NCBI GenBank assembly: GCA_048938855.1
Contig: JBHLLT010000004.1
Location: 96,001-160,000, forward strand
From: Promethearchaeota archaeon
GTDB taxonomy: Archaea > Asgardarchaeota > Lokiarchaeia > Sigyniarchaeales > SOKP01
Reading direction: 5' to 3'
DNA length: 64,000 nucleotides
The notes beneath the pieces are model-generated. The model was not told where the DNA came from, searched no databases, and saw only the letters and a program-made list of their open reading frames with translations. Of this stretch, positions 17,782 to 52,172 are shown piece by piece. The position numbers were made by a program, and so were the translations under genes. Every line of letters begins with the position of its first letter. Within the stretch, counting starts at the first letter, position 1.

Positions 17782-18729
17782 TTAAAGAAATTGGATGTCA
17801 GATTTTTTTGTAAAATTTAACTCTTTTTCATTTGAATATGCATTTTCTTTAATAAGGACATTTGAAAGTTTAACAGTAGCCCCCTCAGTTATTAATTTCA
17901 AACATTCGACAGCTCGAATTCCCCAGACATTTACTTTAATCGATGCTGACTCATCCGAAAGTATCAGTTTTAACAAAAAAGATTTATCACCATTCTTAAG
18001 TGTTAATTCCTTGAAAAAATCAACCTGTATTTCTCCAGTTATAAATCTTATAAATCCATCCTTTTCAAAAAGGTTTTGAATTGTCCATTTAGATTTCTTT
18101 TTTGAATTCTCTTTTAAAATCTCACTTGAATGTTCTGAAGGTTGATATTTTGCGTTTTTTGAATTTACAATTTCAGGGAGTTTAACATTTTCAGGCGCTA
18201 AAATAATATTACTTTGCCTTCCCAAATGGACTTCTAACTTCCCATCTCTTCCCTTATTTGAATATCCTCCAATTATTTGAATTATTTCTCCCTTCTTAAA
18301 AAGTTCATTTTCCAATATCTCCACATTCTCATTCCATAATACAACCTTAATACAATCAGAATTATCACAGATTTTAAATGAACCAACGCGCCCTGAAGTA
18401 CCATCTTTTTTAATAAAAGCACCAACTTGGAATACTGTTTCGACCATTCCAACAATTACAATATTTCTCATATTTTCCACAATCGAGGAGATAGTTATAG
18501 CAAAATCATTATAGTCTATGATTTCTTCAGTAATATGGTTTAAAATCTCCTTATTCTCTATGGAATCTATATTGACCCCCTGCTCCTTAGCAATTAAATA
18601 TAAAATTGCTGGTTTCGTCATGAATCCTTGAAATTCAGCCTCTTTCTCTGTTATATTTTCATTAATTTCTTGTTCACTTATCCCTGCATCCAATAGTGCC
18701 TGATAAATCTCTTCAGCTCTTTCGACCAT
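17782..18729 (-). CDS. RPA/SSB-like protein with two OB folds
   Basis: DNSDCIKVVLWNE and DESASIKVNVWG OB-fold motifs; archaeal RPA-type N-terminus. Confidence 0.85.
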   Translation of the reverse strand: MVERAEEIYQALLDAGISEQEINENITEKEAEFQGFMTKPAILYLIAKEQGVNIDSIENKEILNHITEEIIDYNDFAITISSIVENMRNIVIVGMVETVFQVGAFIKKDGTSGRVGSFKICDNSDCIKVVLWNENVEILENELFKKGEIIQIIGGYSNKGRDGKLEVHLGRQSNIILAPENVKLPEIVNSKNAKYQPSEHSSEILKENSKKKSKWTIQNLFEKDGFIRFITGEIQVDFFKELTLKNGDKSFLLKLILSDESASIKVNVWGIRAVECLKLITEGATVKLSNVLIKENAYSNEKELNFTKKSDIQFL

Positions 18730-18749
18730 ATTTTTTCATACTCTTAATA

Positions 18750-18989
18750 TTATTCATAAATATATGGAAAATTTCTTTGCCTATTATTAACTTCAAAAGA
18801 AGAATTAAGATTTAGACTTAAAACTCTTGTAATTTCTTCATTGGAATTAACACAACAATTCCAATTATTCACGCTTCTATCATTATTAAGAACTATTCCA
18901 CATTTATTGGAATGGTGTAGACAGACATTAAATCCTCTTCTTCTGCTTGAAGTAATTTCTTCTAATGAAATTTTATTCATTTCTTCCAA
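18750..18989 (-). CDS. small hypothetical protein
   Basis: 79 aa ORF between the block promoter motif and the RPA gene. Confidence 0.45.
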   Translation of the reverse strand: MEEMNKISLEEITSSRRRGFNVCLHHSNKCGIVLNNDRSVNNWNCCVNSNEEITRVLSLNLNSSFEVNNRQRNFPYIYE

Positions 18990-19031: not shown

Positions 19032-19047
19032 TATTTAAAGAAAAAAA
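19032..19047 (-). promoter_or_regulatory. block-specific promoter TTTTTTTC-TTTAAATA
   Basis: Exact motif upstream of the 18989 ORF and RPA gene. Confidence 0.7.
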
Positions 19048-19073: not shown

Positions 19074-19694
19074 TTACTTATTATTTAATTTTTTAATGTA
19101 ATTTGCTGTTAGTCCTATTTTATTTCGGGTTCTGTGAAAAGCATATGCAGAGCAATTACAGAAAACCCTTAAATTAGATTGAATTATTTTATAATGAGCT
19201 TGGGCTAGCTCGTTGTCGAGAAGATCAGTTATGAAAATCACTACAGCAACCTGAGTCATGATCTGTGGTCTAAAACATAATTGACTTAATTTAATCTCTA
19301 ATCTTTTCGCATTTTCCCTTGCTCTTTTATAATCAAATACAGGAGCTAATCGATGAAGTTTATGCAAATATACTCGAACTTTATGAGTTTGATGCCGAGA
19401 ACAGAACAATTTTGCATTTATTCTGAAAAATCTCTTAATTCTAATCAAATCAATTAAAAAGCCTGAAATCATTCTATGAACTATTATTTTTGGGACATTA
19501 GTGGCTTCACTTATCTGATTATATTCAGAATCAGTAAGGGCTCGGACCTTTTCATTATTAGGAGCAAATGTAATGTTGCGAAATAAATAATTTAGTACTA
19601 CTTGACGAGAAGCACTTGAATTTTTAAAAAACTTTACATAATACTCATTTATATCATCTGCTTTAATAATTGGTTGTTTCAGAGTCTGACTCAT
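19074..19694 (-). CDS. hypothetical protein with possible TFB/cyclin-like C-terminal repeat
   Basis: PQIMTQVAVVIFI...IIQSNLRVFCNCSAYAFHRTRNKI has cyclin-repeat HTH-like spacing. Confidence 0.45.
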   Translation of the reverse strand: MSQTLKQPIIKADDINEYYVKFFKNSSASRQVVLNYLFRNITFAPNNEKVRALTDSEYNQISEATNVPKIIVHRMISGFLIDLIRIKRFFRINAKLFCSRHQTHKVRVYLHKLHRLAPVFDYKRARENAKRLEIKLSQLCFRPQIMTQVAVVIFITDLLDNELAQAHYKIIQSNLRVFCNCSAYAFHRTRNKIGLTANYIKKLNNK

Positions 19695-19801
19695 GATTTC
19701 CTCACTACAGCAACTAAATATTAAGTTATCATATTAATGAGTCTATTTAAACAAAAAATAGGCTTTAACTTTCACGAGAATTCATATTTAAAAAAAAAAA
19801 A

Positions 19802-20896
19802 TTATAAAAGATTATCCAAAGTAATTTGGCGTTTTTTTGATTGTTGCTTTTGTTGGAAAAAATGATCTCTACATATCTCGTAATTTTTTTTTAATTTATC
19901 AAGATTTTTTTCCAGACGTTCCTTATTTAAATAGTGTTCTTCACACAATAAAGTGAATATTCTTGATTCATTGGGGGGATTCCACAACAAATTATCGATT
20001 TTTTCATTTACATCTGGGAATAAAAAAATTTTTCTCACTTCTTTAATAATGCTTGGATTTAGTCTACTAAAATCATACTTGTTATACTCTTTTAGAATAA
20101 CAGACTCTAGAGATTTGTACTTTCTAATTAGAGTTAATGCTTTCTTTGGACCAACTCCAGATACACCTACATTATAATCCGTACCGATAAGTATCCCGAT
20201 ATCAACTAATTGAAACAGTGAAATTCCCAAATTTGATAAATTTTTCTGCAAATCTATTATAGCAGGTTTTATCTTTTGATATTGCCATTTGCCTTGTACT
20301 TTTCTTTGCAATGATTTCGAAAGATTTTGGATTATATATGGACACCCTAATAATATAGAATCATAATCTTGTGAGTTAGAATAATGGGCAAACCCTTTCT
20401 TAACCAAATGAGTACACTGAGACTCTGCTGATGCCGGTGATTCTATGTAAGGAACACCTAATGCCCCAAGAAGTTGTTTAGATTCTCTTATAATATTTTT
20501 CCACATATATTCCCCGCTGAGTGCAATTTCTCTTGCTAAACCTTTATTATTCTCTCTAATTGCCTTTTCATACCATTTTTGAGTGAAAAGGAAGTCTTTT
20601 AATTGATCTTTTGTTATTAATTTTTTAAGAATTGAGACTTTTCCATCAAAACAGAAAATAGGAAAAATATTTTTTGAATAGTAAAAATTTACTCGATATA
20701 AAAGACCATATAGATGAGATATCGGTCTCTGTGTTCGATCTAATATAAGTTTTGTGTTAGAATTACCTGGATTCTTTAACGTGAAGTTAAATAATCCCAT
20801 TATTATATTTGGAGCATCAACTGCTATAATTTTCCCTCTTAAATCTTGAATATCAATTATCTTTGAGACAATTAAATTTTGTATTTTAACTCCCAT
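19802..20896 (-). CDS. flap endonuclease-1 (FEN1/XPG family) homolog
   Basis: MGV N-terminus, AVDA, FDG, AESQC, SQDYDS, GTDYN.GVSGVGPKKA, C-terminal PIP-like QITLDNLL. Confidence 0.92.
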   Translation of the reverse strand: MGVKIQNLIVSKIIDIQDLRGKIIAVDAPNIIMGLFNFTLKNPGNSNTKLILDRTQRPISHLYGLLYRVNFYYSKNIFPIFCFDGKVSILKKLITKDQLKDFLFTQKWYEKAIRENNKGLAREIALSGEYMWKNIIRESKQLLGALGVPYIESPASAESQCTHLVKKGFAHYSNSQDYDSILLGCPYIIQNLSKSLQRKVQGKWQYQKIKPAIIDLQKNLSNLGISLFQLVDIGILIGTDYNVGVSGVGPKKALTLIRKYKSLESVILKEYNKYDFSRLNPSIIKEVRKIFLFPDVNEKIDNLLWNPPNESRIFTLLCEEHYLNKERLEKNLDKLKKNYEICRDHFFQQKQQSKKRQITLDNLL

Positions 20897-21078: not shown

Positions 21079-21453
21079 TTACTCTTGAATATCCTTTAGA
21101 TCTTCATCAATTGATTTTAAAAATTTTTTTTGAGTCATTTCATCTTTGAAGTCATCTTCAAATGAATCTGCTAAAGCTTCTAAATCTTGATCTGACATGA
21201 GATTATCTTCATCAATTTCACTGTATAGAAATTCTTTAAAAAACTCAAAACCACAATCCCTACATTCAATCAGCTCTCCATAATCTATATATTCATTGGA
21301 TTGACAATTAGGACAGCGAAATTCTGAAGGCATTTTTGGATGAAATATCATAAGTAGATATGTAATAACTAATAATATGAACACTGAGAATATAAACCTA
21401 TCATCATAAATGTAAAAAATCATGCAAATAGGTAAAATTGCGGGAATATACAT
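21079..21453 (-). CDS. membrane-anchored zinc-ribbon protein
   Basis: GGTGA ribosome-binding site, hydrophobic N-terminus, CPNC...CRDC, acidic tail. Confidence 0.6.
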   Translation of the reverse strand: MYIPAILPICMIFYIYDDRFIFSVFILLVITYLLMIFHPKMPSEFRCPNCQSNEYIDYGELIECRDCGFEFFKEFLYSEIDEDNLMSDQDLEALADSFEDDFKDEMTQKKFLKSIDEDLKDIQE

Positions 21454-22988: not shown

Positions 22989-23004
22989 TTTTTTTCTTTA
23001 AATA
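22989..23004 (+). promoter_or_regulatory. block-specific promoter TTTTTTTC-TTTAAATA
   Basis: Exact motif upstream of the 23043 gene. Confidence 0.7.
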
Positions 23005-23042: not shown

Positions 23043-23369
23043 ATGTTTATTATGAGAAAAATAGATGAGATTGGAATCTGTCCAAATTGCGATTGTACGA
23101 TTTCTATTTTCAAAACTCGGAATTACAAGCGATTTGCAAAATGTGAGATATGCGGTATGTCTTATGCATTACCAAAACGAGGCTCTATTAATAATTCTGC
23201 TTTACTTTGTCCAAGGAGTAAGTTTCCAATTTTAATTGTAGATAAAAAAGACCATAAAGCATATTTTTGGACTGACCAGCCTTGTTTTGGTTGTGTTTCA
23301 TTTGACAAGTGTGAACAAATAAAAGATCTAATCTCTGAATTTACTGAACTTAAGGTGTATGGATATTAA
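23043..23369 (+). CDS. double zinc-ribbon protein (topoisomerase C4 zinc-finger-like)
   Basis: IGICPNC...RFAKCEICG.SY.LP...CP...CFGC....C. Confidence 0.7.
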   Translation: MFIMRKIDEIGICPNCDCTISIFKTRNYKRFAKCEICGMSYALPKRGSINNSALLCPRSKFPILIVDKKDHKAYFWTDQPCFGCVSFDKCEQIKDLISEFTELKVYGY

Positions 23370-24369
23370 TCGGTTTAAAGTTATCATATTTACCATTTTT
23401 ATAATTCTTTCAAGTATTTCAATGGGCTCAACGAATTTTTTTATCCTTTTTGTTAAAGCAAGTGAAAATGAAGCTCTTCACACAAATTCTATTGGCGATG
23501 TAATAACGGATAAGGTTTATAATTTTACAGTGGAGGAACCAATTTTAGTATTTAACGATGTCATTCTTTTCGAGAAATATTATTATTATGATATTATGGC
23601 TGTGGTGGTGACTCCTCATACCTGCGATTTGAATATAACTTTATTTGATCCAGAAGGCGATCCGTATGAAATTACTTATGAGTCAAATATGGTTCAGGAT
23701 GATTATAGAATTATTCCTTTTGGAACAGCACTCACAGGAAATTACACCATATTATTTGAGGCAATACTTATAGAAAATCTTAATATTCATATAAAAATTG
23801 AACGAGGGTTCAAATGTCTTTATGATGAAATAGCTGGTGATGAACTTCAAAAATTGAAATATTATGACGTGAGAAAGTTCAAAAATGGAACTAAAATTGT
23901 CTTTAACACAACCTTTAAAAGTGATTGGTATTATAAATTTTATTTTGAAAGAGTCTCTCCAATCTCTAAAAAATTGAGCTGTTATGTTGTAATGGAGCAC
24001 GACATTATAAGTTCTATTGGAATACCATATACAATTTATAGAAATGAATCTCTTGAATTTCAAATATCCTCTATATACAGATTTGGTACAGCTGTCGAAG
24101 GACTTTATATTATGAATTTAACGATATATTGTAATGTTCCCTGTGTAAACATCGCTTTTGCAGTTGTAGAAAGTTACAGGATTGCGGATGAGATCGATCC
24201 GAATGATGACGATCCACCCCCAGATATACCAGGAAATAACACTTCGGGAATGGATGTAATTATCCCAACTGCATGGACAGTAGGTATGATAGTGTTTGTA
24301 GGAAGCGCTGTAGCTATACCTATCTTAATCGTTGTCAGTCGAAAAAAGAAAAATCCAATAACGATTTAA
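23359..24369 (+). CDS. secreted, C-terminally anchored surface protein
   Basis: Signal sequence, beta-rich body with N-x-T/S sequons, DDDPPP linker, TM followed by RKKK. Confidence 0.75.
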   Translation: MDINRFKVIIFTIFIILSSISMGSTNFFILFVKASENEALHTNSIGDVITDKVYNFTVEEPILVFNDVILFEKYYYYDIMAVVVTPHTCDLNITLFDPEGDPYEITYESNMVQDDYRIIPFGTALTGNYTILFEAILIENLNIHIKIERGFKCLYDEIAGDELQKLKYYDVRKFKNGTKIVFNTTFKSDWYYKFYFERVSPISKKLSCYVVMEHDIISSIGIPYTIYRNESLEFQISSIYRFGTAVEGLYIMNLTIYCNVPCVNIAFAVVESYRIADEIDPNDDDPPPDIPGNNTSGMDVIIPTAWTVGMIVFVGSAVAIPILIVVSRKKKNPITI

Positions 24370-25568: not shown

Positions 25569-26798
25569 TTAAGTATTAATTAATACCTTAGCATTATTCT
25601 GCCAGTCTGTGACTGTTTTCACTGAAGCTCCAGATATACTTACTGAAAGTTCTTCAGGATTAGCCTCTAATAAATCTGAAATAGTTATGATTCCTTGATT
25701 TCGTAAATTCTCCACAGTTCCCTTTCCAATACCTTTCACTTGAAGTAATTCAATTTCTTTATTTTCAGAAGAAGTGTCACTATTTTCTGCATCAGTTTCT
25801 TCATATAATGTTTCAATTTCAAAATCCAATCCAGGTGATTCAGGGAGGTCAACCTTATCAGTGTCAGCCACTCCAGCTCCAGTTATATAAAATTCTGCTT
25901 CTTCTGGAGGAAGGTCTGGAGCATCTACTATAACTGCTCTTCGTTTTAGCGAGTTGTTTGAGGAAAAACCTTTTGTTTTAAACATTACTCTGAAATGACA
26001 CCCATGAGCAACAATGTTGCCTCCAATTGCGTCATCTGCTGAAAACAATCCCATCATTTTAGTAGCAACTTGATTAGTAAGTAACACAGCACAATTATAA
26101 GTTTCGGCAATACGAGATAATCCATGAATCATATTATTTAAAACTGCTTGTCTAGGTGCGAGTTTTCCAATTCCTATATATTCTGCCCTTAACAGTGCCA
26201 TTAGACTGTCAATAATAATCAAACGAACCCCACGAGTTTTACAGAGAGCTTCAGCTTTTTGAATCATCTGTTCTTGATGATCAGAAGAATAAATCCGAGC
26301 ATGAAAAATTTTAGAGAGGACATCTTTAGGACTGAGTTCAAATCTTTTTGCGATACGTTTGATTTTTTCTTTTGAAAAAGTATTTTCAGTATCAATATAA
26401 GCAACAGCGCTATTTATTCCTCCCCTTTTTTCAGGAAGTTGAACTGTTACTGAAATTGTATGCGCTAAGGCGGTCTTTCCAGACTTAAATGGGCCATAAA
26501 CTTCAGTGAGTTTTCCAGTTTGGAATCCACCTCCTAAGATACGATTTAATTCAGCTGAACCTGTAGTAAAATATTCAACATTGTCATCAATTTTTGCAGC
26601 TGGAGTAAAGTCAGTCATTCCTAACGCATTTCTCGCATTCCAGATTAACTTTTTTGCTGTCTTCTCTCCTAATCCATCAATATTAGCAACGATAGAATGA
26701 GGACTCATTGCTAATGCTTCAGCAGTACTTATTCCATTCTCTTGTAGTAGCTTTATTTGGCGTGAATTGATTCCCTTTACTTGATCTAAATCTGCCAT
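25569..26798 (-). CDS. radA: RadA/Rad51 recombinase paralog with extra C-terminal HhH domain
   Basis: N-terminal HhH, EVYGPFKSGKT, YIDTENTF, LIIIDS, LTNQV, GGNIVAH; acidic linker then VKGIGKGT HhH. Confidence 0.9.
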   Translation of the reverse strand: MADLDQVKGINSRQIKLLQENGISTAEALAMSPHSIVANIDGLGEKTAKKLIWNARNALGMTDFTPAAKIDDNVEYFTTGSAELNRILGGGFQTGKLTEVYGPFKSGKTALAHTISVTVQLPEKRGGINSAVAYIDTENTFSKEKIKRIAKRFELSPKDVLSKIFHARIYSSDHQEQMIQKAEALCKTRGVRLIIIDSLMALLRAEYIGIGKLAPRQAVLNNMIHGLSRIAETYNCAVLLTNQVATKMMGLFSADDAIGGNIVAHGCHFRVMFKTKGFSSNNSLKRRAVIVDAPDLPPEEAEFYITGAGVADTDKVDLPESPGLDFEIETLYEETDAENSDTSSENKEIELLQVKGIGKGTVENLRNQGIITISDLLEANPEELSVSISGASVKTVTDWQNNAKVLINT

Positions 26799-26857: not shown

Positions 26858-26873
26858 TATTTAAAGAAAAAAA
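26858..26873 (-). promoter_or_regulatory. block-specific promoter of the radA paralog
   Basis: Exact TTTTTTTC-TTTAAATA motif. Confidence 0.7.
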
Positions 26874-26985: not shown

Positions 26986-27004
26986 TATTTAAAGAAAAAA
27001 AAAA
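26986..27004 (-). promoter_or_regulatory. second block-specific promoter upstream of radA
   Basis: Exact motif; followed by a 12-bp inverted repeat rather than an ORF. Confidence 0.6.
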
Positions 27005-41360: not shown

Positions 41361-43889
41361 TTACTTATCTTTAATAATTTTTTTACATAAGTTTATTCCC
41401 AATCCAGTTTTCTGATTAAGAACATAAGGATTTTCCTTTTTAACTTGTGTAGCTGTATGATAGCCCGCTTTATACAAAATTCTTGCCCTTACACGAGCAA
41501 CATCATGTAGTCTTAATACTAAATCGAACAATTCTTCATGAATGCCATAGTGTAGTCGAATTTTAAGAGTTTCACACATTTCAGCAATTCTAGTTAACTT
41601 ATCCTGAAGATCAATCCCATTTGTGCTTAAATTAGTAGCAATGATACCAATAAAGGTAATAATTCTTTCTAAATTATCTCTTACAGAAAATAGATCTCCT
41701 GCCATTATATTATATTTATCTAAAATTTGATCAATCGGTTCCTCATCTGCCCATTCTAAAATGGGTTGTAACATTTTATAGTCTTTTACACGGGATTCTG
41801 CTTTAAGAATATCAAAGGATTCTTTGATCAATTCTTGAAATGTATTAATTTCAACGTATTCAAGCTTAAATCTAATCATTACACCAGATACTGGATATAA
41901 ATATAATCTTATAATTAATTTCCCAAAATGAGAACATCTGATTAAACCATCTTCATCTTTTATAATTAAACCCTTCTCGAATAAATAAGACAAGATATAT
42001 TGATTTTTGACAGATTTTGGAACAATAGAATCGACATATTTTTGAAATTTTGGATCAGGAAGTTGGATTAAATAGAGCAAAAAAGAAGTAATATGTTTAC
42101 AGAACTCGAAGGAAAATTCATCATTTGCAAAGTTATCAGAGATACCATTTTTAAATCCACAAGTGCACTGTATACCAGTTTCTATATCAAATTGGCAATA
42201 ATATACTCCAAATGATGTCTTTACATATCCAGAGATATTTGAATCATTAAGTTTTGTTAATTTAACTTGATAATTACTTTCTTTTAATTCTCTTACAGTA
42301 TTCACATTAGTATGAAGTTTTAGGATATTAATTGGGGTGATTTCTTTTATCATAAGCAATTGTTCGATGGGAATCTTCTGTTCCTTCATTTTACTTTTTA
42401 TTCCATACCAGAAAAACGTCTTTTCGAAGAATTGCTTAAGCTGTTCTAAATTAATCTTCTTTTCTTCATAAATTCTCAACAATACTTGTTCCTTAAGAGT
42501 ATTGGTCTTGTTTAATCCTGAAGTGAGATCATTGTATCGTGGAATTGAAACATGCTTAAGCATATGATTTTGGAAAAAATAATCTTCCACCCATATTTTC
42601 TCATCAATATCTCTAACTAATATTATACCATATCCAACAGAATCAAGGCCAGGTCTTCCGGCTCTACCCAATATCTGGAATGCTTCATTTGCGGAAAAAG
42701 GTTTGAAATAAGAAAAACCATCCCCATTTTCGAAATAGCCAGAGAAATTTTTAAGATTGTGTCCAGATGTTACATACTTCTTAAAGTCTTTTAGGATAAC
42801 TACACGAGCAGGTGTGTTTATACCGGCAGAGAGCGTTGTGGTACAGCTGATTATTTTAATAATTCGTTTTCTAAAATTATCTTCAATAATTTTCCTCTCT
42901 TTTGGAAGGAGTCCAGCATGGTGAAATGCAACACCAGACTTTATTACTTTTTTTAAATCACGATGCCCCCCTTTAATTGAAGATAGCCTTTTTTCTAATG
43001 ATTTACAAACATTTAATTCATTCTCTTCAAGATATTTTTTTACAAGAATCTTAATATTTTCTGCTAGCTTCTGGGCTGCTTTCCGACGGTTAACAAAGAT
43101 AAGTACTTGTCCATTTTTCTCAAGAGTATATTTAATTATTTTTTTAATCGTTGAGTCCTTGTTTTGAGTAATTTCAATTTTATAGTGGAGTGGAACAGGA
43201 CGGTTATCTGATTTAATGAGGATTGTTTTATTTCCAAGTGAAGAAAGCCATGAATTAAAAAATTCTGCATTAGCTATTGTTGCTGAAAGTCCAATAATTT
43301 GTGGATTATGAAGGAATTCATTTAATCTAACTATTAAGGATTCTAACCTCGGACCTCTATCAGATTCACCAATAATATGAATTTCATCAATAATTATTGT
43401 TGAAATATTAAAGATCCACTCTTTATCGTAAAAATTCCTAAGAATTGAGTCCATTTTTTCATAGGTGGTCACTATTAAATCTGCTTTTTCTAATTTGAAG
43501 TCATCTACATCGTAATCACCTATAGAAAGTTCAATTTTTAACCCAAACCTACTATAATTTTTCTTAAAATGAGAATATTTTTCTGTAGCTAATGCTTTAT
43601 AAGGAACTAAATATATAGATTTTCCAAATTTTTGAAATATGTTATTTATAGCACACAATTCACCAATTAAGGTCTTACCGCTTCCAGAAGGCGCACAAAT
43701 TAAAAAGGATTTCCTAAAAAATAACCCCTTTTTGATACTGTCCATTTGAATTTGCCTTAGGTTAAAGATCTTTCCCTCAAAGAGTACACGCAGAACCCGT
43801 TTGTCAGATATATATTTAAATATTTCTTTTTCTGGATTGATTTCTAACTCTTTTTTTTTAATTTTATCTGTAAAATCTGTTAAGGATAT
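41361..43889 (-). CDS. Hel308/Ski2-like SF2 helicase with SWIM-type zinc-finger insertion
   Basis: APSGSGKT, DEIH, LSAT, FHHAGL, QILGRAGRPG; CTC...CKH insertion; frame open upstream through the Q-motif LRQIQ to ATA at 43889. Confidence 0.88.
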   Translation of the reverse strand: MSLTDFTDKIKKKELEINPEKEIFKYISDKRVLRVLFEGKIFNLRQIQMDSIKKGLFFRKSFLICAPSGSGKTLIGELCAINNIFQKFGKSIYLVPYKALATEKYSHFKKNYSRFGLKIELSIGDYDVDDFKLEKADLIVTTYEKMDSILRNFYDKEWIFNISTIIIDEIHIIGESDRGPRLESLIVRLNEFLHNPQIIGLSATIANAEFFNSWLSSLGNKTILIKSDNRPVPLHYKIEITQNKDSTIKKIIKYTLEKNGQVLIFVNRRKAAQKLAENIKILVKKYLEENELNVCKSLEKRLSSIKGGHRDLKKVIKSGVAFHHAGLLPKERKIIEDNFRKRIIKIISCTTTLSAGINTPARVVILKDFKKYVTSGHNLKNFSGYFENGDGFSYFKPFSANEAFQILGRAGRPGLDSVGYGIILVRDIDEKIWVEDYFFQNHMLKHVSIPRYNDLTSGLNKTNTLKEQVLLRIYEEKKINLEQLKQFFEKTFFWYGIKSKMKEQKIPIEQLLMIKEITPINILKLHTNVNTVRELKESNYQVKLTKLNDSNISGYVKTSFGVYYCQFDIETGIQCTCGFKNGISDNFANDEFSFEFCKHITSFLLYLIQLPDPKFQKYVDSIVPKSVKNQYILSYLFEKGLIIKDEDGLIRCSHFGKLIIRLYLYPVSGVMIRFKLEYVEINTFQELIKESFDILKAESRVKDYKMLQPILEWADEEPIDQILDKYNIMAGDLFSVRDNLERIITFIGIIATNLSTNGIDLQDKLTRIAEMCETLKIRLHYGIHEELFDLVLRLHDVARVRARILYKAGYHTATQVKKENPYVLNQKTGLGINLCKKIIKDK

Positions 43890-43910: not shown

Positions 43911-44153
43911 TTAATACGGATTTGTCCATTTTTTCATGAGTTCTTGAAAAGTTTGTGAATCTCTTGAAATCTCAATACTCTCAATAACTCCTAAGTTTCT
44001 AATTTTTAAGTCTGAATTAATATAGCAAATTAAGGCATGAAGAGGTTCTCCATGTAAATGAATATGGGGAAAATAGATATCAGTATTTATCTTTTTTGTA
44101 AATTGTATCTCAATCCCAAGAGTTATCCTTTCTTTACACAAGGGACATACCAC
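43911..44153 (-). CDS. small Cys/His metal-binding protein
   Basis: CPLC...HIHLHG..H; start may lie further upstream (frame open to 44219). Confidence 0.65.
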   Translation of the reverse strand: MVCPLCKERITLGIEIQFTKKINTDIYFPHIHLHGEPLHALICYINSDLKIRNLGVIESIEISRDSQTFQELMKKWTNPY

Positions 44154-44318
44154 ATTTTGTGATTTATATTTAACTTCCTTAATATCCCTAATTTTTCCAA
44201 AAACTATAACGATAATAGATCACTTGATAATTTCTATTCAATTAACTACTTATGGGAATGAGTCAATATAAAGAAAAAAAGTCAAAATATTTATTGTCAA
44301 AATTATCTTTACCTTCGA

Positions 44319-44333
44319 TTTTTTCTTTAAATA
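44319..44333 (+). promoter_or_regulatory. block-specific promoter TTTTTTC-TTTAAATA
   Basis: Exact motif heading the 44396-52172 operon; divergent variant at 44265-44280. Confidence 0.7.
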
Positions 44334-44395: not shown

Positions 44396-46393
44396 ATGAC
44401 AGATACTCAAGAAGGCTTAATGCAAAAAAAATCGGATTTAAAATTTTACTACAAAATGGCTCAAGAAGCCTTTCAGGCAAATGATGTAGATCAAGCACTT
44501 AAAATATCAAAGAGTGGTCTTGAACAAGCTAAATTACAAAATAAAGGAGATTGGGTGGTTAAGTTTGATACTTTTAATATAAATGTTTCTCAACTTCAAT
44601 CATTAGTTCCGAGTATTAAAAGAGAATCCCTTACAATCTTGAAAGGAATAGGTTTAAGGGTCGCCGAAAAACTAACAAAAATTGGCATTAATTCAATTTC
44701 AGATTTAGCAGAATCATTCCCTAGAAAAATTGCTCAAATTGATGGTGTTGGATTAGTGAAAGCTCAGAAAATTATAGATAATGCGAAGAAGTATGTTGGA
44801 ATGAAAAAATTAAATGATTTTTCTGATACAAATATTTCTAAAGAAGACTTAAAAGCGAAAGAAGAATCAAACAAAAAACAAGAACCTACAAGGTGGTTTG
44901 ACGAAAAATTTAAAAAACTAGAAACAGAAAAATGGTATCCACCAGAAGCGGAAATTTCTGAAACCGAGATTGTTGATGAGAATTTAGAAGATTATATGGG
45001 TACTGATGAAAATATCAATGATTTTTTCGATGAGAATATTGAAGAGCATTATGAACCAGTTGTTAATTATTATGATTCGGATACTAAGATTGATTTGGAT
45101 GAACCGAGAGGATTAAGAGAACCTGACTCAAAAGATTCTTTAATAATTTCACCAGAATTAGTTCGACAATCCAATCTTAAGATACAAGAACAAGATCCTA
45201 TTTTTAAAGAGACACTTAGCCCATCTCAATTCCAGGAAAATATTACAGCAGTTATTAAAACATTTGAATTATCTGAATTCGTTACTATTAAAAAGATTCC
45301 CAACCTGAGAAGGCTATTTACTGGAATTGACCTAATAGCAATAAAACTTGTCCAAGTAAAAGAATTCTTAGATTTAATATATATTATCCCAATTAAATTC
45401 AGTTCTTTAAAAGGTTCTATAATTACTTCAAGTAATACTATTAAATATAGATCTGTAGAAAATTACTCTGAAAAGGATTTTCAGTTGGACCAGTTATCCC
45501 AATCATACATTAAAGCTATTTCAAATGCTCTAAATGTTATTGAAGAAGATCTTTTGAATAATGGTAGCTTTTTTCGGTTTTTATCAAAATACTTGAAAAT
45601 TAATATCTTCCTTGAAAAAACCATTACTCATAAAAAGCTTTTCTTTCGCTCCGGTCCAGTCCAATATAAAGTTTTGATTGAACCGCTTTTACTTTGCCAT
45701 AATAACGTTGGATTTACTGAAAAAATCGTTCCTTTTGCATACCAAAAACGAATAAATTTGCATGTTTTATCACAATCTCAATTACAAGATTTTTTACAAT
45801 ATATTGATCAAAAATATTATTTGATTGAAACATATAGCGAGCAAAATAATGCATTAGCTCTCAATTGTGAAGCAATTAATAAATTCATAAGAGATTTACG
45901 GAAGTATTCTACACCCTTCATGCTTTATGGTTTTTTATTTCTATTAATATTACTATTCCAATGGTATACAGTCTTATCTTTCTTAATTAATTTAGGTTAT
46001 GGGATAATTTCACTTTACATTGTTGTAGTAGGGTATATTTATCTAAAGCTCTATAATCAAAAATCAGAAATCCAGCGTGATTTTTCTATACCATATTATC
46101 AAAAGAACTTCGATTTCGATGAGACAAATCTTATCTTAATTAATGAAGAACTGAGCCCAAGATTTATGGAACAGTTTGTTTATGAATGTATTGAAAAAGA
46201 CAGTAATCTTAATTTCATAAATCAAATAGAACAGAAAAACGCCGAAACCTTTCTTAGAAATAAATTAAATAAGATAAAAATAGATGATTCTCAGCTCTTC
46301 GAACCCGAAGACAACACTCAATCTGCAGAAAATAAAGAATCCAAGCTTAAAAACAAATTAGTAGATAAATACAGCTCATTTTTGGAGGATTAA
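44396..46393 (+). CDS. membrane protein with tandem HhH DNA-binding motifs
   Basis: LKGIGLRVAEKL and IDGVGLVKAQKI HhH motifs, acidic linker, two TM near the C-terminus. Confidence 0.75.
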   Translation: MTDTQEGLMQKKSDLKFYYKMAQEAFQANDVDQALKISKSGLEQAKLQNKGDWVVKFDTFNINVSQLQSLVPSIKRESLTILKGIGLRVAEKLTKIGINSISDLAESFPRKIAQIDGVGLVKAQKIIDNAKKYVGMKKLNDFSDTNISKEDLKAKEESNKKQEPTRWFDEKFKKLETEKWYPPEAEISETEIVDENLEDYMGTDENINDFFDENIEEHYEPVVNYYDSDTKIDLDEPRGLREPDSKDSLIISPELVRQSNLKIQEQDPIFKETLSPSQFQENITAVIKTFELSEFVTIKKIPNLRRLFTGIDLIAIKLVQVKEFLDLIYIIPIKFSSLKGSIITSSNTIKYRSVENYSEKDFQLDQLSQSYIKAISNALNVIEEDLLNNGSFFRFLSKYLKINIFLEKTITHKKLFFRSGPVQYKVLIEPLLLCHNNVGFTEKIVPFAYQKRINLHVLSQSQLQDFLQYIDQKYYLIETYSEQNNALALNCEAINKFIRDLRKYSTPFMLYGFLFLLILLFQWYTVLSFLINLGYGIISLYIVVVGYIYLKLYNQKSEIQRDFSIPYYQKNFDFDETNLILINEELSPRFMEQFVYECIEKDSNLNFINQIEQKNAETFLRNKLNKIKIDDSQLFEPEDNTQSAENKESKLKNKLVDKYSSFLED

Positions 46394-46396
46394 GAA

Positions 46397-47128
46397 ATGA
46401 AAAAAAAAATAACTCAAAGCTTTCGAATAATATATTTTATTGGTCTTATCTTGCTGTTTTTTTCACTATTCTTAGATTGGTATTCATTCCAGATCTATGA
46501 TTTTGATAATGAGCTCGTTGTCTCCTGGAGTTATTATTTTTTTATTGGATGGATAACGCCTTTTTCTGAAAGTTCTCCTCTTAATGAAGCAATTAAACCC
46601 AAAGATGTTTCAATTCCTTTTATAGTTAATATTTTATTGCTCCTTGCTTTAATTGCCTCTGGTTATATTGTTTTACTAAAAAATGTTGATCAGGCTACTA
46701 ATATTAAGTCATATAATAAGTATGGCCATGTGAATGGATTTCTACTTTTTTTAATAGCCTATTATATCATAATATGCCCCGTGATGTATTTAATACCAAA
46801 TGAGCTTTATTATCCTCTCCTAAATATACGAAATTATGATTCAGAACTTATCAAATGGTATACTATTGGTCCAAGTTATATTTTACAGTTAATCTCATTT
46901 CCATTAATCTTCCCTTACTCCGTTTTCTATTTTAAAACAATAAGTAAATTCATACAACAGGAACGCACTCCAGAAAAAAATTTTCATAGAATGATTCAGG
47001 AATCTCAAGAGCTACTTGATTTGGATCAATATATTGCTGAAGAAGAATTAAAGAAAGAATGCGATCCCCAAACAGCTAAAGATGATATCAACAATATTTT
47101 AACTACATTTATAGAGGGAAAATATTGA
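46397..47128 (+). CDS. four-TM membrane protein
   Basis: SLFLDWY first TM and three more TM; coupled in operon. Confidence 0.75.
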   Translation: MKKKITQSFRIIYFIGLILLFFSLFLDWYSFQIYDFDNELVVSWSYYFFIGWITPFSESSPLNEAIKPKDVSIPFIVNILLLLALIASGYIVLLKNVDQATNIKSYNKYGHVNGFLLFLIAYYIIICPVMYLIPNELYYPLLNIRNYDSELIKWYTIGPSYILQLISFPLIFPYSVFYFKTISKFIQQERTPEKNFHRMIQESQELLDLDQYIAEEELKKECDPQTAKDDINNILTTFIEGKY

Positions 47129-47985
47129 ACTTACAAGTAATTGATGCGAAACTGAAGAATCTAATTCAAGTATGTAAAGAAACTAAGAACTATAAAAAAT
47201 TAGCAGTAGTAAGTTTTGTATTAACAAGTAATAAAGTTAATGAGATTGGTATTAATCTTGGAGTAAGACCTAGAGATAAGGGTTCAGGAGAAAAAATTTT
47301 TGAATATATGGAAACAATAAATAAAATATTTGAAACCAATTTAAAAATCCCAATCTTTCAATTAGGCCATATAGAAACAATTAGAGAATGTGAGACTCTT
47401 TTTCTCAAAAGTAGAGGAAATATTCCCTATGATTATATCAAAACAATATTTCAAGTCTATTATGAATTAAGGAAATTGGATATACTTAATCTACATAAAA
47501 GATTGGAATATGATGATTTTATAGAGTCCTCCAAGTTGGGTATTTTTTCTTTTTTATCTCCGAAAGCGAACCGGAAAGAGAAAAACTCAAGTGATTTACG
47601 ACCATTAATTTTACAAAAGATTAGGGAACGAGAAGCTAGAATTCAAAAAAATCTTAAATTAAAATTAGATAGTCACCAATTCGAGACCGCAATCTATTTG
47701 AGATCAATTAAAAATTCACTCATAAATAATAAAAAAGGAAAAATAACAATTCACGGAGCGCTTAAGGATAATATCAAGTATCAAAACTCAATCGAAAATA
47801 TATATGGGTATTTTCTTATTGGATTGATCATTCTACTTATCTCGATAGGAGTGATAATCCTCATAGAATTAACCGTAACGCCATTTTCTTCAAGCGAGTT
47901 AAGTGTTTGGACATTATTTTTCTTTGGGGGCACAATTTTATTAATATTCATATATATAAAAATGTACAGAAGGGAGAGGCTATAA
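47125..47985 (+). CDS. protein with two C-terminal TM helices
   Basis: TTG start overlaps the upstream stop; C-terminal hydrophobic hairpin. Confidence 0.75.
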   Translation: MNLQVIDAKLKNLIQVCKETKNYKKLAVVSFVLTSNKVNEIGINLGVRPRDKGSGEKIFEYMETINKIFETNLKIPIFQLGHIETIRECETLFLKSRGNIPYDYIKTIFQVYYELRKLDILNLHKRLEYDDFIESSKLGIFSFLSPKANRKEKNSSDLRPLILQKIREREARIQKNLKLKLDSHQFETAIYLRSIKNSLINNKKGKITIHGALKDNIKYQNSIENIYGYFLIGLIILLISIGVIILIELTVTPFSSSELSVWTLFFFGGTILLIFIYIKMYRRERL

Positions 47986-47986
47986 T

Positions 47987-50900
47987 GTGACAAAAGATTT
48001 CTCATATGAATCTGTATCAGGAATAACCAATTTTGGAAAGGAAGATAATAGAAAAAAATATATGATACTCGAAGAGAAAGAAGAAAAAAAAAGATATTTA
48101 AGAATATGGAGCACAAATCCATCATTTAAAGATACGAATAATAAATTTTCATTAGTAAAAACTGCTTTTTTACTAATTTTATCTCTCTTTATTATTATAT
48201 CAATGTATATTTTAAATCAGCAACTAATTATTTCAATTATTACTGGACTTTTATGCGGGGTTTTATTTATCATAGTGTTTTATGATGAGATCTATACATT
48301 GAAATACTTAATACCTTTTGTATTTAAGAACACTGTATCTTTTAATCCATTTGAGAATATTGTTTTTTGGTTAAACAAAAAAGATTCTGCTACATTATAC
48401 CTCTCTAACAGAAGAGATACGGTTCACATGGCTATTAGAATATTTCAGATAACAGTGATTCCCGAAAATATTCATTCTGCTATTCATCAGTTTATAAAAG
48501 CGCTGAGTTCTAAAAATTTAAGGTTATCATATTCATATCAAGTTATTCAAAAACCAATTATTTCTACATTGCAAGAAAATATGTCAAAGGAGACAGCTAT
48601 AAGTTCCTTGGAGTCAAGAGAAGCAAAAATCTATTTCTCTATATTTTATAATTCAATTGGATTACTTACTAACCATAAATTGGATCAAATACAATATTTT
48701 ATCAAAAAACATTCTGTAGATCTTAAAAGTAATCTTGTTAGTAATTTTCACCACTTTAAAGTTAAAATACTCACAGGAAATTCATTAGTTAATGCTTTAA
48801 GAACATTTTTCATTCAAGAGAAGTCTGATCAAGATAATTTTGAAAGCAAAAAAGAAACTTTGAAAGAATTTAAACCAAGATTTTTAGCTAAATTCTTAAT
48901 GTGGATTACGTTGATTGTTTATTTTGATTTTGTATTTTTTTCAATGGAACTGTTTGTTTTATACATCATTTTCATCAATTTGGGCTTAATTACAATACTG
49001 GTGTTAATTTGGTGGAGATCAATATTATTCCAATATACAAAATCTAAATTATTACAAGATGATGATATTTTAATTATAAATCCATTCAAGAATGTTTTTT
49101 TTTACCATTTTAGACAGTTCCCCTATACATTATTTGTTCATATTAACAATCAAATTCTCATTGGAATGAAGATGGTTAATCTCAAGTATATTTATCAAAC
49201 CCCCTTTTGTCTTCTTAGTAAGTTTATTGAAAGTCTGAATAATCATAAAATATCTTTTAGTTATACACTAAAAAATCAACCCATTGATTATTATGAGTTC
49301 TATAAAAAAGGGTTGAAATACATCAATGAAAAACATAAATCACTCATACTTTGGAGAGATGATACGAAAATTAAAGATGCCATTCAAGCTGAACATTGGT
49401 TAAGTTACCGTTATGGAATGTGGTATAGTATGCTTACTATGACCATAAATAGTTATAGATTCTCCAATTCACTTGATAATGGTATAATTTCCGAAATGGA
49501 AGATGAGTTAACTATTAAGATTGATGCCCTAAGAGGAGCATTTAATATTAACTTTCAAGGCTATGAAATTGAGGATTTAAAAGCACACAATTTAATTTCA
49601 GGGTACATGTTTTCGACCTTGAAGAACAACTTATTTCAGTTAATTGGTAGCCACCTTAATTATGTCATGTTACAAGGAACATCTATGTATCCCCTGTCAA
49701 CGATTGTAGATATTCTTAAAAAGGGGACTAAAACAAAAATCGCAGCTGAATTTAACACTCCCCTCTATTTAGAAAATCACATCACTATTGGACACACAAT
49801 TAATACTGAAGTATTAGAACCTGAAATACCTGTAGGGTTTACTTTAGACCAATTGAAGAATTTACTTATAGTAAATGGGAAATCAGAAACAAGAGATACC
49901 ATTTCTATGAAAATTGTTTTAGAATTGATAGAGTCAAAAGTTCCTTCTCTAATTTTTGATTTTACAGGAAACTGGTCTAAGTTGTACAGCTATTTTGAAG
50001 ATTCTACGTTTAAAAAGGATATATTGCATTTTAAATATGGAAGTGCTTTCATAATCGATCCTACTAAATCAGACATCCCTTATGATCCTCATAATACAGA
50101 TTATTTAGAATTTGTATTTGATGCGTTTGGATTAGCGTTTAAGAAAGGTGAGAGAACAATTGAAATGTTTCGAAATACTCTCCAAAAAAATCCTGATATG
50201 GATTTGGGTTCAATTCGTATGGCCTTACAGAATCAAAGTGAATGGGAAAAAAGCCCAATAAATGACACTTTGCTTTCATTGTTTTCAGATTTTACCCAAG
50301 ATGATTTGAGTTTCTTTCAAGTGATACAAAAAGACAGTATCGTAGCAAATCAATTCATTCAAAATTCAAAGACTATCATAATCGACCTTTCTTTTCTAAG
50401 AGAATTAAATAAGAAAATATTTTTAACGTTCATTATTCTGGCGAAAATTATTCATTATGTTAAAGAAAACAGAGATTTCCATGAAAAATTTATAATAATT
50501 CCAAGTATTGATATTTTTTTTGATTCCTACTTCCTAGAGTTAAAAAGGAATTATGATAAAGTAGATCTTTTCTTAAAGCCTTTACTAGAAAATAATTTTG
50601 GTCTTATTCTGTCAGCAAATCAAATACATTATCTCCATACCAACTTTTTACTTTATTTTAATAATATCATCTCACTTAAAGCCACTGATGTCAGAGATGT
50701 TTCAATTTTGCGTAATCTAATGAATTTACAGGAAATTGAGGGCATTGGATATTATACTAAGAGCCGAAATCAGACATACCAAATAGGGTATCTAAAGAAT
50801 ATGAAAGATAATGAAGTTTTAATTCGGAGAGAAGATATTGACCAACCATTTCCGGCATACATAGAATGGAAAGAGATATCTGAAAAAAATCCGCTCTCGT

Positions 50901-51820
50901 ATGATAAAATAGTGAAGTTAATGGAACAACAGGGATACGATATAAAATTTACAGAGAGAAGAATATTAGAACAAGCAAAAAAAATGCTTTTTGAGATAGA
51001 TCTAGGACACTATATTATTTATTTGGATGAGGTTATCAAATTTTTAGATGAGATTCAAACAATTGACCAGATTGGAAATCTCTATAAGCATAAGCTAAGA
51101 TCTCAATTAAAAGAGATAATTTATCCTAAAGCATCCCAAAAAACTAGTAAAAAAGAACACATTAAAAGAATTAGAGATGATCTATTAAACATTTTAATCA
51201 AACACGGATATTTAGTAGAAGACCATCCAAGAAGAGCGAGTGGTTCAGAAACTTTAAGAACTTCTTATTCTATAGGAGATAGATATCAAGAAGCATTAAA
51301 TGATTATTATAAAACAAAAGGACATACGCAAACAGATGTGAATATTGAAATATTAGAAAAATCTACAGAAAAATCAAATTTAGATAATATATTTCAAGAA
51401 AAAACTCGAAAATATATTGTTCAACAAAAAAATTTAAAAGATGCCTTAATGCGCGAGTTTTCTGATTTTAATTATGATTTATTTAAAATTTATAGTTATA
51501 TTAACCGAGGAAATTATAAAGGTGCTTTAAAAATAGAGCAAGGTTTAATTAATAGATTTTTAAATAATGTAATTTCACATTATTATAATATAGAAAGTCC
51601 TATATCTCATGATACATTAGAGAGGTTCCTAACTCTATTAGGAAGTATTGCAGATTTTCCTTTAACAAGACAAGAACTCTTAGGTTATATAGAACATTAC
51701 CAAGTAATAGATTTAAAAAATAGCAATTTAGAAGTTTTGGCTAGAGAAATTTATCAATTTATATATAATTTCTTTGATGAAATTCAGTACTATATATTTG
51801 AGGGGAAAAATAATAACTAG
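47987..51820 (+). CDS. membrane-bound VirB4/HerA-like protein with degenerate Walker motifs
   Basis: Two TM hairpins, then ITIG...LLIVNGKSETRD, LIFDFTGNW, IIIDLS, FIIIPSID, LILSANQ in HerA/VirB4 motif order. Confidence 0.7.
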   Translation: MTKDFSYESVSGITNFGKEDNRKKYMILEEKEEKKRYLRIWSTNPSFKDTNNKFSLVKTAFLLILSLFIIISMYILNQQLIISIITGLLCGVLFIIVFYDEIYTLKYLIPFVFKNTVSFNPFENIVFWLNKKDSATLYLSNRRDTVHMAIRIFQITVIPENIHSAIHQFIKALSSKNLRLSYSYQVIQKPIISTLQENMSKETAISSLESREAKIYFSIFYNSIGLLTNHKLDQIQYFIKKHSVDLKSNLVSNFHHFKVKILTGNSLVNALRTFFIQEKSDQDNFESKKETLKEFKPRFLAKFLMWITLIVYFDFVFFSMELFVLYIIFINLGLITILVLIWWRSILFQYTKSKLLQDDDILIINPFKNVFFYHFRQFPYTLFVHINNQILIGMKMVNLKYIYQTPFCLLSKFIESLNNHKISFSYTLKNQPIDYYEFYKKGLKYINEKHKSLILWRDDTKIKDAIQAEHWLSYRYGMWYSMLTMTINSYRFSNSLDNGIISEMEDELTIKIDALRGAFNINFQGYEIEDLKAHNLISGYMFSTLKNNLFQLIGSHLNYVMLQGTSMYPLSTIVDILKKGTKTKIAAEFNTPLYLENHITIGHTINTEVLEPEIPVGFTLDQLKNLLIVNGKSETRDTISMKIVLELIESKVPSLIFDFTGNWSKLYSYFEDSTFKKDILHFKYGSAFIIDPTKSDIPYDPHNTDYLEFVFDAFGLAFKKGERTIEMFRNTLQKNPDMDLGSIRMALQNQSEWEKSPINDTLLSLFSDFTQDDLSFFQVIQKDSIVANQFIQNSKTIIIDLSFLRELNKKIFLTFIILAKIIHYVKENRDFHEKFIIIPSIDIFFDSYFLELKRNYDKVDLFLKPLLENNFGLILSANQIHYLHTNFLLYFNNIISLKATDVRDVSILRNLMNLQEIEGIGYYTKSRNQTYQIGYLKNMKDNEVLIRREDIDQPFPAYIEWKEISEKNPLSYDKIVKLMEQQGYDIKFTERRILEQAKKMLFEIDLGHYIIYLDEVIKFLDEIQTIDQIGNLYKHKLRSQLKEIIYPKASQKTSKKEHIKRIRDDLLNILIKHGYLVEDHPRRASGSETLRTSYSIGDRYQEALNDYYKTKGHTQTDVNIEILEKSTEKSNLDNIFQEKTRKYIVQQKNLKDALMREFSDFNYDLFKIYSYINRGNYKGALKIEQGLINRFLNNVISHYYNIESPISHDTLERFLTLLGSIADFPLTRQELLGYIEHYQVIDLKNSNLEVLAREIYQFIYNFFDEIQYYIFEGKNNN

Positions 51821-52172
51821 TGACCAGAGAAAAGAATTTCTTTATGAAATGTTAGAAAAGATTGTTTTTAATGAAGCTCAATTAACAATCTTGAAAAATG
51901 GAATTGAAAAGGTAGCAAATGGTTATCTTACTCCAAAAGATTTAAGAAAACAAATTATAGAACTAAGAGTGAAACTCATTGAAGACTTGATAGAGTTTTT
52001 CCCATTTTACCTTAAACAGAACTTAATTGAAAATAAGTTATTAAATTTTACTGATTCAAATGAATCATCATTAATATCAGCAGAATTAGAGGAGAGAAAT
52101 AATTTACTTGAAGAAGTTGGATGTCGAATAAATAATATCTATAGAAAATTAAAAGAAAAATACAATGTATAA
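51774..52172 (+). CDS. hypothetical helical protein
   Basis: Last gene of the operon; true start may be ATA near 51810 after GAGGGG. Confidence 0.6.
   Translation: MMKFSTIYLRGKIITSDQRKEFLYEMLEKIVFNEAQLTILKNGIEKVANGYLTPKDLRKQIIELRVKLIEDLIEFFPFYLKQNLIENKLLNFTDSNESSLISAELEERNNLLEEVGCRINNIYRKLKEKYNV

Follow-up and report, generated by a model that had tools for sequence, protein, structure and literature searches.

A 45-kb chromosomal island with its own TFB paralogue, a shared promoter element and a second set of recombination genes in an Asgard archaeon

Results

Gene content of the island

We analysed a 64,000-nt window (G000:C70:96001-160000) of G000, a metagenome-assembled genome of a Lokiarchaeia archaeon (3.95 Mb, 30% GC). 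Positions are those of the window; G, C, L and f label genomes, contigs, loci and families, and G004, G016 and G006 belong to the same genus as G000. Gene identities were obtained by Pfam and NCBIfam profile scans of the window proteins, and extra copies were sought by tblastn and family searches over the whole G000 genome. The window contains a discrete 45-kb block at approximately 12000-57020, referred to here as the island. It encodes a divergent paralogue of transcription factor B (TFB), a second set of recombination genes and a group of membrane proteins, and lies between two Ldh_2 paralogues of the malate/L-lactate dehydrogenase family (Table 1). At the left junction, homology stops near 12000. 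An earlier note on this DNA, made from its letters alone, had recognised the cluster and placed it at 17782-52172; the cluster is there, and those limits are too narrow. A literature search found no paper on the island, its promoter or its TFB.

The profile scans bore out the RPA, FEN1, RadA, RadB-like, Hef and Hel308-like genes named in the note, including the extra helix-hairpin-helix (HhH) of RadA. The island RadA has an N-terminal HhH and an intact Walker A motif (GPFKSGKT), matches Pfam Rad51 (E 1.8e-68), and scores above the cut-off of NF003301 (324 against 259 bits) and below that of TIGR02236 (290 against 361 bits). The island FEN1 is divergent, since its TIGR03674 score of 280 bits is under the cut-off of 352, and the Hel308-like helicase, at 326-398 bits, is far under the NCBIfam cut-offs of 887-1200. 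The ERCC4 domain, missing from the island Hef, was detected genome-wide on C79 and C62 only, not on C70. As the note had supposed, these genes form a second set and are not the sole copies: further copies are present on other contigs for RPA (C31, 32% identical to the island copy), FEN1 (C81, 34%), RadA (C34, 40%, and C93, 38%), Hef (C79, 42%, with the ERCC4 nuclease, and C43, 35%) and Hel308 (C34, 31%). Island and non-island paralogues are thus 31-42% identical, at about equal distances. The non-island copies seem to be the housekeeping genes, because they have higher family-model scores and the C79 Hef carries ERCC4. In all, G000 encodes three RadA proteins of full length, and RadB-like genes are present on C49.

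Promoter and TFB of the island

Most island transcription units start behind a shared promoter. The 15-mer TTTTTTCTTTAAATA, with two or fewer mismatches, occurs 27 times in the window against 6.7 expected. Its exact form is found 11 times in the whole 3.95-Mb genome, and eight of these sites lie within 16339-55805. Seven of the eight are placed 21-62 nt upstream of an ORF start, and the eighth (26986-27000) is a second copy, 187 nt upstream of radA; none of the three exact sites outside the island is in promoter position. Variants with one to three mismatches precede most of the other island units (Table 1). This concentration is far beyond chance, so the shared promoter proposed in the note stands. 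Because the motif is only 21 nt from the ATG of the gene for the 132-aa CxxC protein at 27701-28099, the transcript of this gene would be leaderless. The motif consists of a T6C tract directly upstream of the TATA box TTTAAATA, at the usual position of the TFB-recognition element (BRE). Over the whole genome, the seven nucleotides preceding this TATA box are rich in A, and only 7% of the sites have C at -1. G016 and G006 retain the motif at the orthologous positions, although their proteins are only 40-80% identical, many of them 40-60%. In G038, which belongs to another family, the exact or one-mismatch motif is absent, and variants combining a T-run with a TATA box were seen by eye only. Chance co-location of the island genes was rejected because of these promoter statistics and the synteny described below.

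The island encodes its own TFB, a 413-aa protein with a zinc (Zn) ribbon and two cyclin folds. The ribbon cysteines C25, C28, C42 and C45 are invariant in 19 orthologues, and the ribbon matches Pfam Zn_Ribbon_TF weakly, below the curated cut-off (E 3.7e-4). A profile of the orthologues searched against the PDB found TFIIB cores (E 4e-4). In the AlphaFold model, the core has a pLDDT of 80-94, and the top 40 Foldseek matches are all TFIIB, TFB or Brf (P. woesei 1d3u_B, TMt 0.78, rmsd 3.1). Pfam PF00382 does not match the protein, and the same model detects 12 canonical TFBs in the genome. Judged by these profiles and the predicted structure, the product is a real but very divergent TFB. The region upstream of its gene has no T6C element. 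The island TFB is the likely reader of the T-run that lies at the BRE position of the island promoters. The 206-aa protein at 19074-19694 had also been considered as a TFB cyclin or helix-turn-helix (HTH) fragment; this is unsupported, as its profile gave no TFB match in the PDB at E<=5. The 12 canonical two-repeat TFB loci besides the island TFB (for example, C31:16456-17010 and C49:222373-222921) are an unusually large complement.

Membrane proteins of the island

The operon at 44396-52172 begins with a 665-aa protein in which HhH and hydrophobic segments were confirmed, in agreement with the membrane HhH protein described in the note. Its (HhH)2 domain is closest to the N-terminal domain of RadA/Rad51 (1pzn, E 6.6e-10). 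Its conserved middle domain matches no Pfam entry. The family to which this domain belongs comprises 181 clusters (50% identity); distant members of the family keep the HhH, and a few add an NYN RNase. A predicted structure hints at an Mrr-like nuclease fold in this protein (ESM-Atlas 0.81; TM-score 0.3-0.5), which we treat as a lead only.

The operon also encodes two small membrane proteins and a 1277-aa membrane protein. A sequence profile of the latter found nothing significant in the PDB, so we turned to structure prediction for its fold. A model covering residues 540-1020 (pLDDT 81, pTM 0.82) matched VirB4 (4ag5, VIA-align Z 24.3), DndH-C (24.2), HerA (4d2i, 23.9) and TrwB (20.8) indistinguishably. 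All 52 homologues share a P-loop of the form NGxxxxR[ED] and a Walker B of the form hhhhPxhD, with neither GK[ST] nor DE. The VirB4/HerA-like protein of the note is therefore supported in its predicted fold and not in its catalytic motifs, which are degenerate throughout. Without a GK[ST] P-loop, the protein cannot be a CedB-type motor; it appears to be a conserved pseudo-ATPase, which would serve as a scaffold or gate rather than a motor. Candidates for a VirB6/CedA-like channel of six to seven transmembrane (TM) segments are the ORFs with several such segments at 53663-54481 (8 TM), 40401-41012 and 46397-47128.

The five-TM protein that resembles S2P/M50 proteases has H45, E46 and H49 inside the predicted TM segment 37-55, and none of the three residues varies among 21 orthologues. 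The best PDB profile matches are S2P and RseP (E 0.013 and 0.054), which cover the HExxH helix alone; there is no Pfam match, and the second motif is not LDG, with P142-S143 and D146 (PSxxD) being invariant. The M50-like protease of the note thus gains an invariant intramembrane HExxH, the family-level match is weak, and the identity is plausible. The 975-aa protein with N- and C-terminal anchors is probably a surface protein.

The pilin-like small proteins of the note were not substantiated. The ORFs at 39701-40238 and 41058-41333 are hydrophilic, which rules out this reading for them. The sole hairpin topology in the island is that of five small ORFs in which a TGA codon for selenocysteine (Sec) lies between two TM segments, and their likeness to pilins is one of topology. 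The repeat resembling a selenocysteine insertion sequence (SECIS) that accompanies these ORFs is also found in seven relatives, where it stands between the RadA paralogue and the orthologue of 27701, with up to five copies in L040.

Conservation and phylogeny

G016 carries the island at the same chromosomal site as G000. An empty site was found in G004 (L138, G004:C175, 6075-8480), where the flanks are the same and a gap of 208 nt, without an island, separates the two tandem Ldh_2 genes. In G003 the block is inverted and adjoins the left-type Ldh_2 copy, and in G006 it is split; both lack the island RadA and have the membrane operon. The island RadA, the TFB and the gene for the 1277-aa HerA-like protein are all missing from G004 and G023, and also from G013, where the contig ends a short way past the left island boundary. 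These observations indicate that the island is accessory, being missing in some species of the genus, a trait that the earlier note had not anticipated.

The HerA-like gene is nevertheless present in 21 of the 24 sampled genomes of the genus, and island-type RadA occurs in 35 species at 68-94% identity. The earlier note had named a lack of conservation in relatives as a possible refutation. We found gene order kept over both halves of the island in many species, with synteny in more than 30 species of the family; in L051 the order is scrambled, yet the genes are still clustered. The ORFs are intact in dozens of species, the divergence of the island roughly tracks that of the flanking genes, the same site is used in several species, and the GC content of the island equals that of the genome.

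To place the island RadA, a tree of 45 sequences was built. The island RadA sequences group in a distinct clade (100% support), whose stem measures 1.23 substitutions per site and calls for caution over long-branch effects. This clade is not sister to the host paralogues, which rules out a recent duplicate of the host RadA. The other RadA copies of G000 (C34:82700-83623 and C93:22909-23832) represent a duplication specific to the Loki order and group with single f2/g2 copies (support 100). In a sample of 121 Asgard genomes, only family f1 proved to have island-type RadA (at least 59% identity), in 9 of 15 f1 genomes; a separate case, at 61% identity, is G038, an f2 genome.

The profile of the HerA-like protein reaches further and has weak but specific homologues in other Asgard families. 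In the distant family f21 (L132, which is G086:C54 1-15045, and L133-L137), a 512-aa homologue has the same dead P-loop, reading GGSQDERN, and the membrane part is a separate 294-aa ORF. This homologue lies within approximately 15 kb of a RadA paralogue and of Hel308-like, RadB-like and FEN1-like genes, so that the linkage between the pseudo-ATPase and the recombination toolkit is older than the island in its present form. No T-run promoter shared by its genes is visible in the f21 cluster, which has 43% GC and also encodes a large M28-peptidase-like protein. Extra HerA-like copies stand in other contexts in G012, G015 and G022. At L080 (G012:C76, 836-11775), the neighbours of a 1279-aa HerA-like paralogue with a dead P-loop are a 631-aa protein with a DUF87/HerA domain and a 1673-aa protein that has an HTH and a TFIIB repeat; the locus is possibly another module of this kind with a different make-up.

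Discussion

The architecture described above, an island that is also a regulon, is the part of our interpretation held with high confidence. Taken as a whole, the reading that we favour, at about an even chance, is that of a vertically inherited but dispensable chromosomal island working as a private regulon for switchable DNA exchange and recombination. In this model, the island TFB together with TATA-binding protein would read the T-run as a BRE and recruit RNA polymerase, in the manner of an alternative sigma factor. Expression of the TFB gene, which has no island promoter itself, would then switch on the whole island as a unit. Its cargo would handle DNA at the membrane and then recombine it. 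The membrane module would combine the (HhH)2 membrane protein of DNA-binding type and the two small membrane proteins with the VirB4/HerA-fold protein as a dead-ATPase scaffold or gate, and the ssDNA and recombination toolkit would consist of RPA, RadA with two HhH, the RadB-like ATPase, Hel308, the nuclease-less Hef and FEN1. The S2P-like intramembrane protease, the surface proteins and the small GTPase with its roadblock-like partner would be further cargo. The function itself, a switchable programme by which cells would exchange DNA, through uptake or transfer, and couple this to homologous recombination, is suggested by this gene content, and we give it somewhat less than an even chance. 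The earlier note had likewise read the cluster as an inducible DNA-exchange programme. The regulon part of that idea is supported by the dedicated TFB and the T6C promoters, and a motor of the Ced/Ted type is contradicted by the dead P-loop.

Several observations weigh against DNA exchange as the function. Neither GK[ST] nor the DE Walker B is present in the VirB4/HerA-fold protein or any of its homologues, and the island has no active translocation ATPase of this family. Neither a VirB6/CedA-like channel nor a VirB2-type pilin was demonstrated, no homology test aimed at either having been made. The island is absent from G004, G023 and probably G013, and its RadA is missing from G003 and G006. 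Finally, the pairing of the TFB with the promoter is deduced from their co-occurrence.

Some of the same observations would also suit the remnant of a large mobile element, for example one of integrative conjugative type or a provirus, that has become domesticated or is decaying. The TFB, the Zn-ribbon proteins, the private promoters and the genes of recombination/replication type would then have served this element in the past, and any function today would be residual. Presence is polymorphic, with a clean empty site in G004, and the block is inverted in G003 and split in G006. G012, G015 and G022 have extra HerA-like copies, and next to one of these copies are genes for a DUF87 ATPase and a protein with a TFIIB repeat; the island RadA is a long branch outside the host RadA clade, and the distance to the host copy is about the same for every island paralogue. 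In addition, Asgard viruses have been reported to encode TFB together with zinc-ribbon proteins (PMC13700489). On the other hand, in Pfam and PHROGs scans of the window proteins we found no integrase, relaxase, replication initiator, capsid or terminase/packaging gene, which agrees with the earlier note, and PHROGs gave nothing meaningful. No att-like repeats were found at the island boundaries, and searches of IMG/VR, INPHARED and GenBank phage/virus records returned no relatives, the best viral RadA being 28% identical. These results make a recent origin from a virus or mobile element unlikely. The host-like GC content, the shared site, the divergence in step with the flanks and the intact ORFs in dozens of species also speak against a decaying remnant, and we consider this explanation unlikely.

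A regulon for stress or DNA-damage repair inside the cell only, serving, for example, membrane-tethered double-strand-break or fork repair or the handling of chromosomes at division, would account for much of the cargo, since RPA, FEN1, RadA, Hef and Hel308 are classic archaeal enzymes of fork restart and homologous recombination. The membrane proteins would then serve signalling or envelope remodelling, and no DNA would pass between cells. With its gene beside those of a single-pass membrane protein and the TFB, the S2P-like protease suggests a signalling cascade of regulated intramembrane proteolysis, and the dead P-loop speaks against a DNA pump. However, a full housekeeping set already exists elsewhere in the genome, surface proteins belong to the regulon, and one operon joins an HhH and a VirB4/HerA fold in its membrane proteins, a combination conserved across Asgard families together with recombination genes. 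Both the restriction to repair within the cell and the signalling or envelope role of the membrane proteins seem to us improbable, to the same degree as the mobile remnant. Far less probable still is an anti-virus or anti-plasmid defence island built of helicase, nuclease and HerA-type modules. The Hel308-like helicase does resemble HamB of Hachiman in PADLOC, which was used for defence families, and the HerA-fold proteins of SIR2-HerA and DUF4297-HerA defence are among the top structural matches. Nevertheless, the HamB score of 146 bits is far below the 398 bits of NCBIfam Hel308; neither HamA, SIR2 and DUF4297 nor any further effector is present, and PADLOC matched none of the HerA-like, HhH or unassigned proteins, while RadA, RPA, FEN1 and TFB are not defence components. 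The defence reading was rejected, as PADLOC gives a generic helicase similarity only.

A broader version of the favoured reading would see in the island an ancient Asgard programme of DNA exchange and recombination, switched by its own TFB, with a core common to distant Asgard families. Such a programme would include a specialised RadA, Hel308, FEN1, RPA, a RadB-like ATPase and a membrane complex around an inactivated protein of VirB4/HerA type. We regard this broader version as rather doubtful, slightly less so than the mobile remnant.

A dedicated initiation factor with a distinctive promoter element, putatively paired here, recalls the alternative-TFB regulons of haloarchaea and the ComX/SigH competence regulons of bacteria. 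In those regulons, one factor-promoter pair turns on a functionally coherent gene set. The island differs from them in that the factor and nearly all of its putative targets lie in one block, and in that the factor is too divergent for detection by the Pfam TFIIB model.

In Sulfolobales, the TFB3 DNA-damage programme comprises Ups pili, the Ced importer and the HerA operon, and TFB3 is a truncated co-activator without DNA-binding cyclin folds (PMC6101594, PMC6101591, PMC9905601). As precedents, Ted loci are found next to genes of homologous recombination, and Ced, Ups and HerA are under joint control of TFB3 (PMC9905601, PMC6101594). The island shares with the TFB3/Ced system a TFB paralogue, a VirB4/HerA-like membrane protein, small two-TM proteins and homologous recombination, with TFB control being putative here, and both are chromosomal rather than plasmid-borne. 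In contrast to TFB3, the island TFB has a Zn ribbon and both cyclin folds, and the island promoters have a special element at the BRE position; the island genes are spare paralogues in one 45-kb accessory block. In contrast to Ced, the P-loop is dead, and no CedA/VirB6 homologue or type IV (Ups-like) pilus genes were identified in the island, where no channel-aimed homology test was made. The analogy with TFB3/Ced is a reasonable one, and a DNA-exchange programme in the island would most likely be analogous, not homologous, to the TFB3/Ups/Ced response.

The Ted system of Thermoproteales consists of TedA, TedB and TedC, encoded beside rad50, herA and parA (PMC9905601). Here too, membrane genes of DNA-transfer type are clustered with recombination genes on the chromosome. 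The island differs in its inactive ATPase, in its recombination genes (RadA, Hel308, Hef, FEN1 and RPA, against Rad50 and HerA in Ted) and in its dedicated TFB and promoter; homologues of the TedC pilin and the TedA channel were not demonstrated, and no homology test was aimed at them. Membership in Ced or Ted thus fails on the ATPase motifs of the VirB4/HerA-fold protein, whereas the fold itself matches. More than one full-length RadA per genome, with a second RadA clade, has been reported for some Asgard archaea, including Lokiarchaeia (Matsuo et al. 2025, PMC12722695). G000 differs in having three, and the island copy, with its added HhH, is a separate long-branch clade not mapped onto the clades of that paper.

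If the island does govern a switchable exchange and recombination of DNA, it would be the first such system in Asgard archaea and would bear on the rise of regulated recombination and of specialised recombinases near the origin of eukaryotes. Whatever its function, it offers an unusually clean archaeal case of regulation resembling that by an alternative sigma factor, with one TFB and one promoter element confined to a 45-kb island, and the analysis brings to light a family of VirB4/HerA-fold proteins, spread across Asgard archaea, in which the dead P-loop is conserved.

Remaining genes and repeats

The features of the island and its flanks are listed in Table 1.

Table 1 Genes and promoter motifs of the island and its flanks, in window positions
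Feature	Position	Strand	Remarks
Ldh_2 paralogue, left flank	10782-11933	-	70% identical to right-flank copy
572-aa soluble protein	13307-15025	-	Downstream of GTPase pair; no Pfam, PHROG or PADLOC match; adjoins GTPase in L051, L062
Arf-family small GTPase	15061-15732	-	Pfam Arf E 3.6e-10
Roadblock/LC7-like GTPase partner	15738-16289	-	Profile against PDB, E 0.044, weak
Exact motif	16339-16353		49 nt upstream of ATG of 15738-16289
RPA-like OB-fold ssDNA-binding protein, second copy	17782-18729	-	Pfam/NCBIfam; after 79-aa ORF
79-aa ORF	18750-18989	-	Upstream of RPA-like gene
Exact motif	19032-19046		Before 79-aa ORF, then RPA-like gene
Conserved 206-aa protein	19074-19694	-	17 orthologues; no PDB match
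One-mismatch motif	19744-19758		Before 19074-19694
FEN1 paralogue	19802-20896	-	XPG_I 72.8 bits, XPG_N 23.1 bits, both above Pfam cut-offs
Small Zn-ribbon protein	21079-21453	-	Hydrophobic N-terminus, acidic tail
Exact motif	22990-23004		Before 23043-23369 and 23359-24369
108-aa multi-CxxC zinc protein	23043-23369	+	Conserved in 23-24 loci
336-aa protein	23359-24369	+	Hydrophobic anchors at N- and C-terminus; conserved in 23-24 loci
RadA paralogue with extra C-terminal HhH	25569-26798	-	HHH_5 at residues 350-400, after acidic linker
Exact motif	26858-26872		Before radA
Five TM-Sec(TGA)-TM ORFs, 68-75 aa	27384-29475 (within 27310-29475)	-	TGA in loop; three ~79-nt SECIS-like repeats
132-aa CxxC protein	27701-28099	-	
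Exact motif	28121-28135		21 nt from ATG of 27701-28099
RadB/KaiC-like RecA-fold ATPase	29594-30328	-	Walker A GESGTGKT intact
114-aa single-pass membrane protein	30306-30650	-	Acidic tail
S2P/M50-resembling five-TM protein	30672-31415	-	HExxH in TM2
Motif variant TTTTTTCCTTTATATT			21 nt upstream of 30672-31415
Divergent TFB/TFIIB paralogue, 413 aa	31872-33113	+	Zn ribbon, two cyclin folds, ~90-aa C-terminal extension
975-aa protein, N- and C-terminal anchors	33271-36198	+	Prenyltransferase-type alpha/alpha-toroid repeats
208-aa protein	36242-36868	+	Same operon as Hef helicase
Hef-type helicase without ERCC4 nuclease domain	36861-39032	+	NF010337 553 bits, model positions 7-538 of 781
DUF1922-type Zn-ribbon protein	39036-39560	+	
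Two paralogous hydrophilic proteins, 72-74 aa	39701-40238	-	
Small hydrophilic ORF(s)	41058-41333		
Hel308-like helicase	41361-43745	-	DEAD, Helicase_C, Helicase_dom4_arc domains
80-aa CxxC protein	43911-44153	-	Upstream of Hel308-like gene
Two-mismatch motif	44265-44279		Before 43911-44153/Hel308-like unit
Exact motif	44319-44333		Before operon 44396-52172
665-aa membrane protein	44396-46393	+	First of operon; RadA-N-type (HhH)2, conserved middle domain, TM hairpin
Two membrane proteins, 243 and 286 aa	46397-47985	+	Same operon as 665-aa protein
1277-aa membrane protein	47987-51820	+	N-terminal TM hairpins; VirB4/HerA/TrwB-fold domain (predicted), residues ~585-970
132-aa protein	51774-52172	+	Last gene of operon
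447-aa conserved protein	52299-53642	+	
Zn-ribbon and PP-loop-type ATPase-like protein, 378 aa	54525-55661	-	N-terminal CxxC...CxxC
One-mismatch motif	55696-55710		Before 54525-55661
Exact motif	55791-55805		Before 385-aa protein gene ending 57014
385-aa protein	55791-57014, including promoter	+	Right end of island
Ldh_2 paralogue, right flank	57041-58147		Direct orientation relative to left copy

The 378-aa protein at 54525-55661 has a weak similarity to DndC, QueC and PAPS reductases, and its architecture is like that of a tRNA-thiolation enzyme, yet its gene has an island-type promoter. To the right of the island, two adjacent small paralogous genes (62932-63435 and 63496-63906) contain a 137-nt repeat with 74% identity, and two to three tandem copies are present in G006, G016 and G023.

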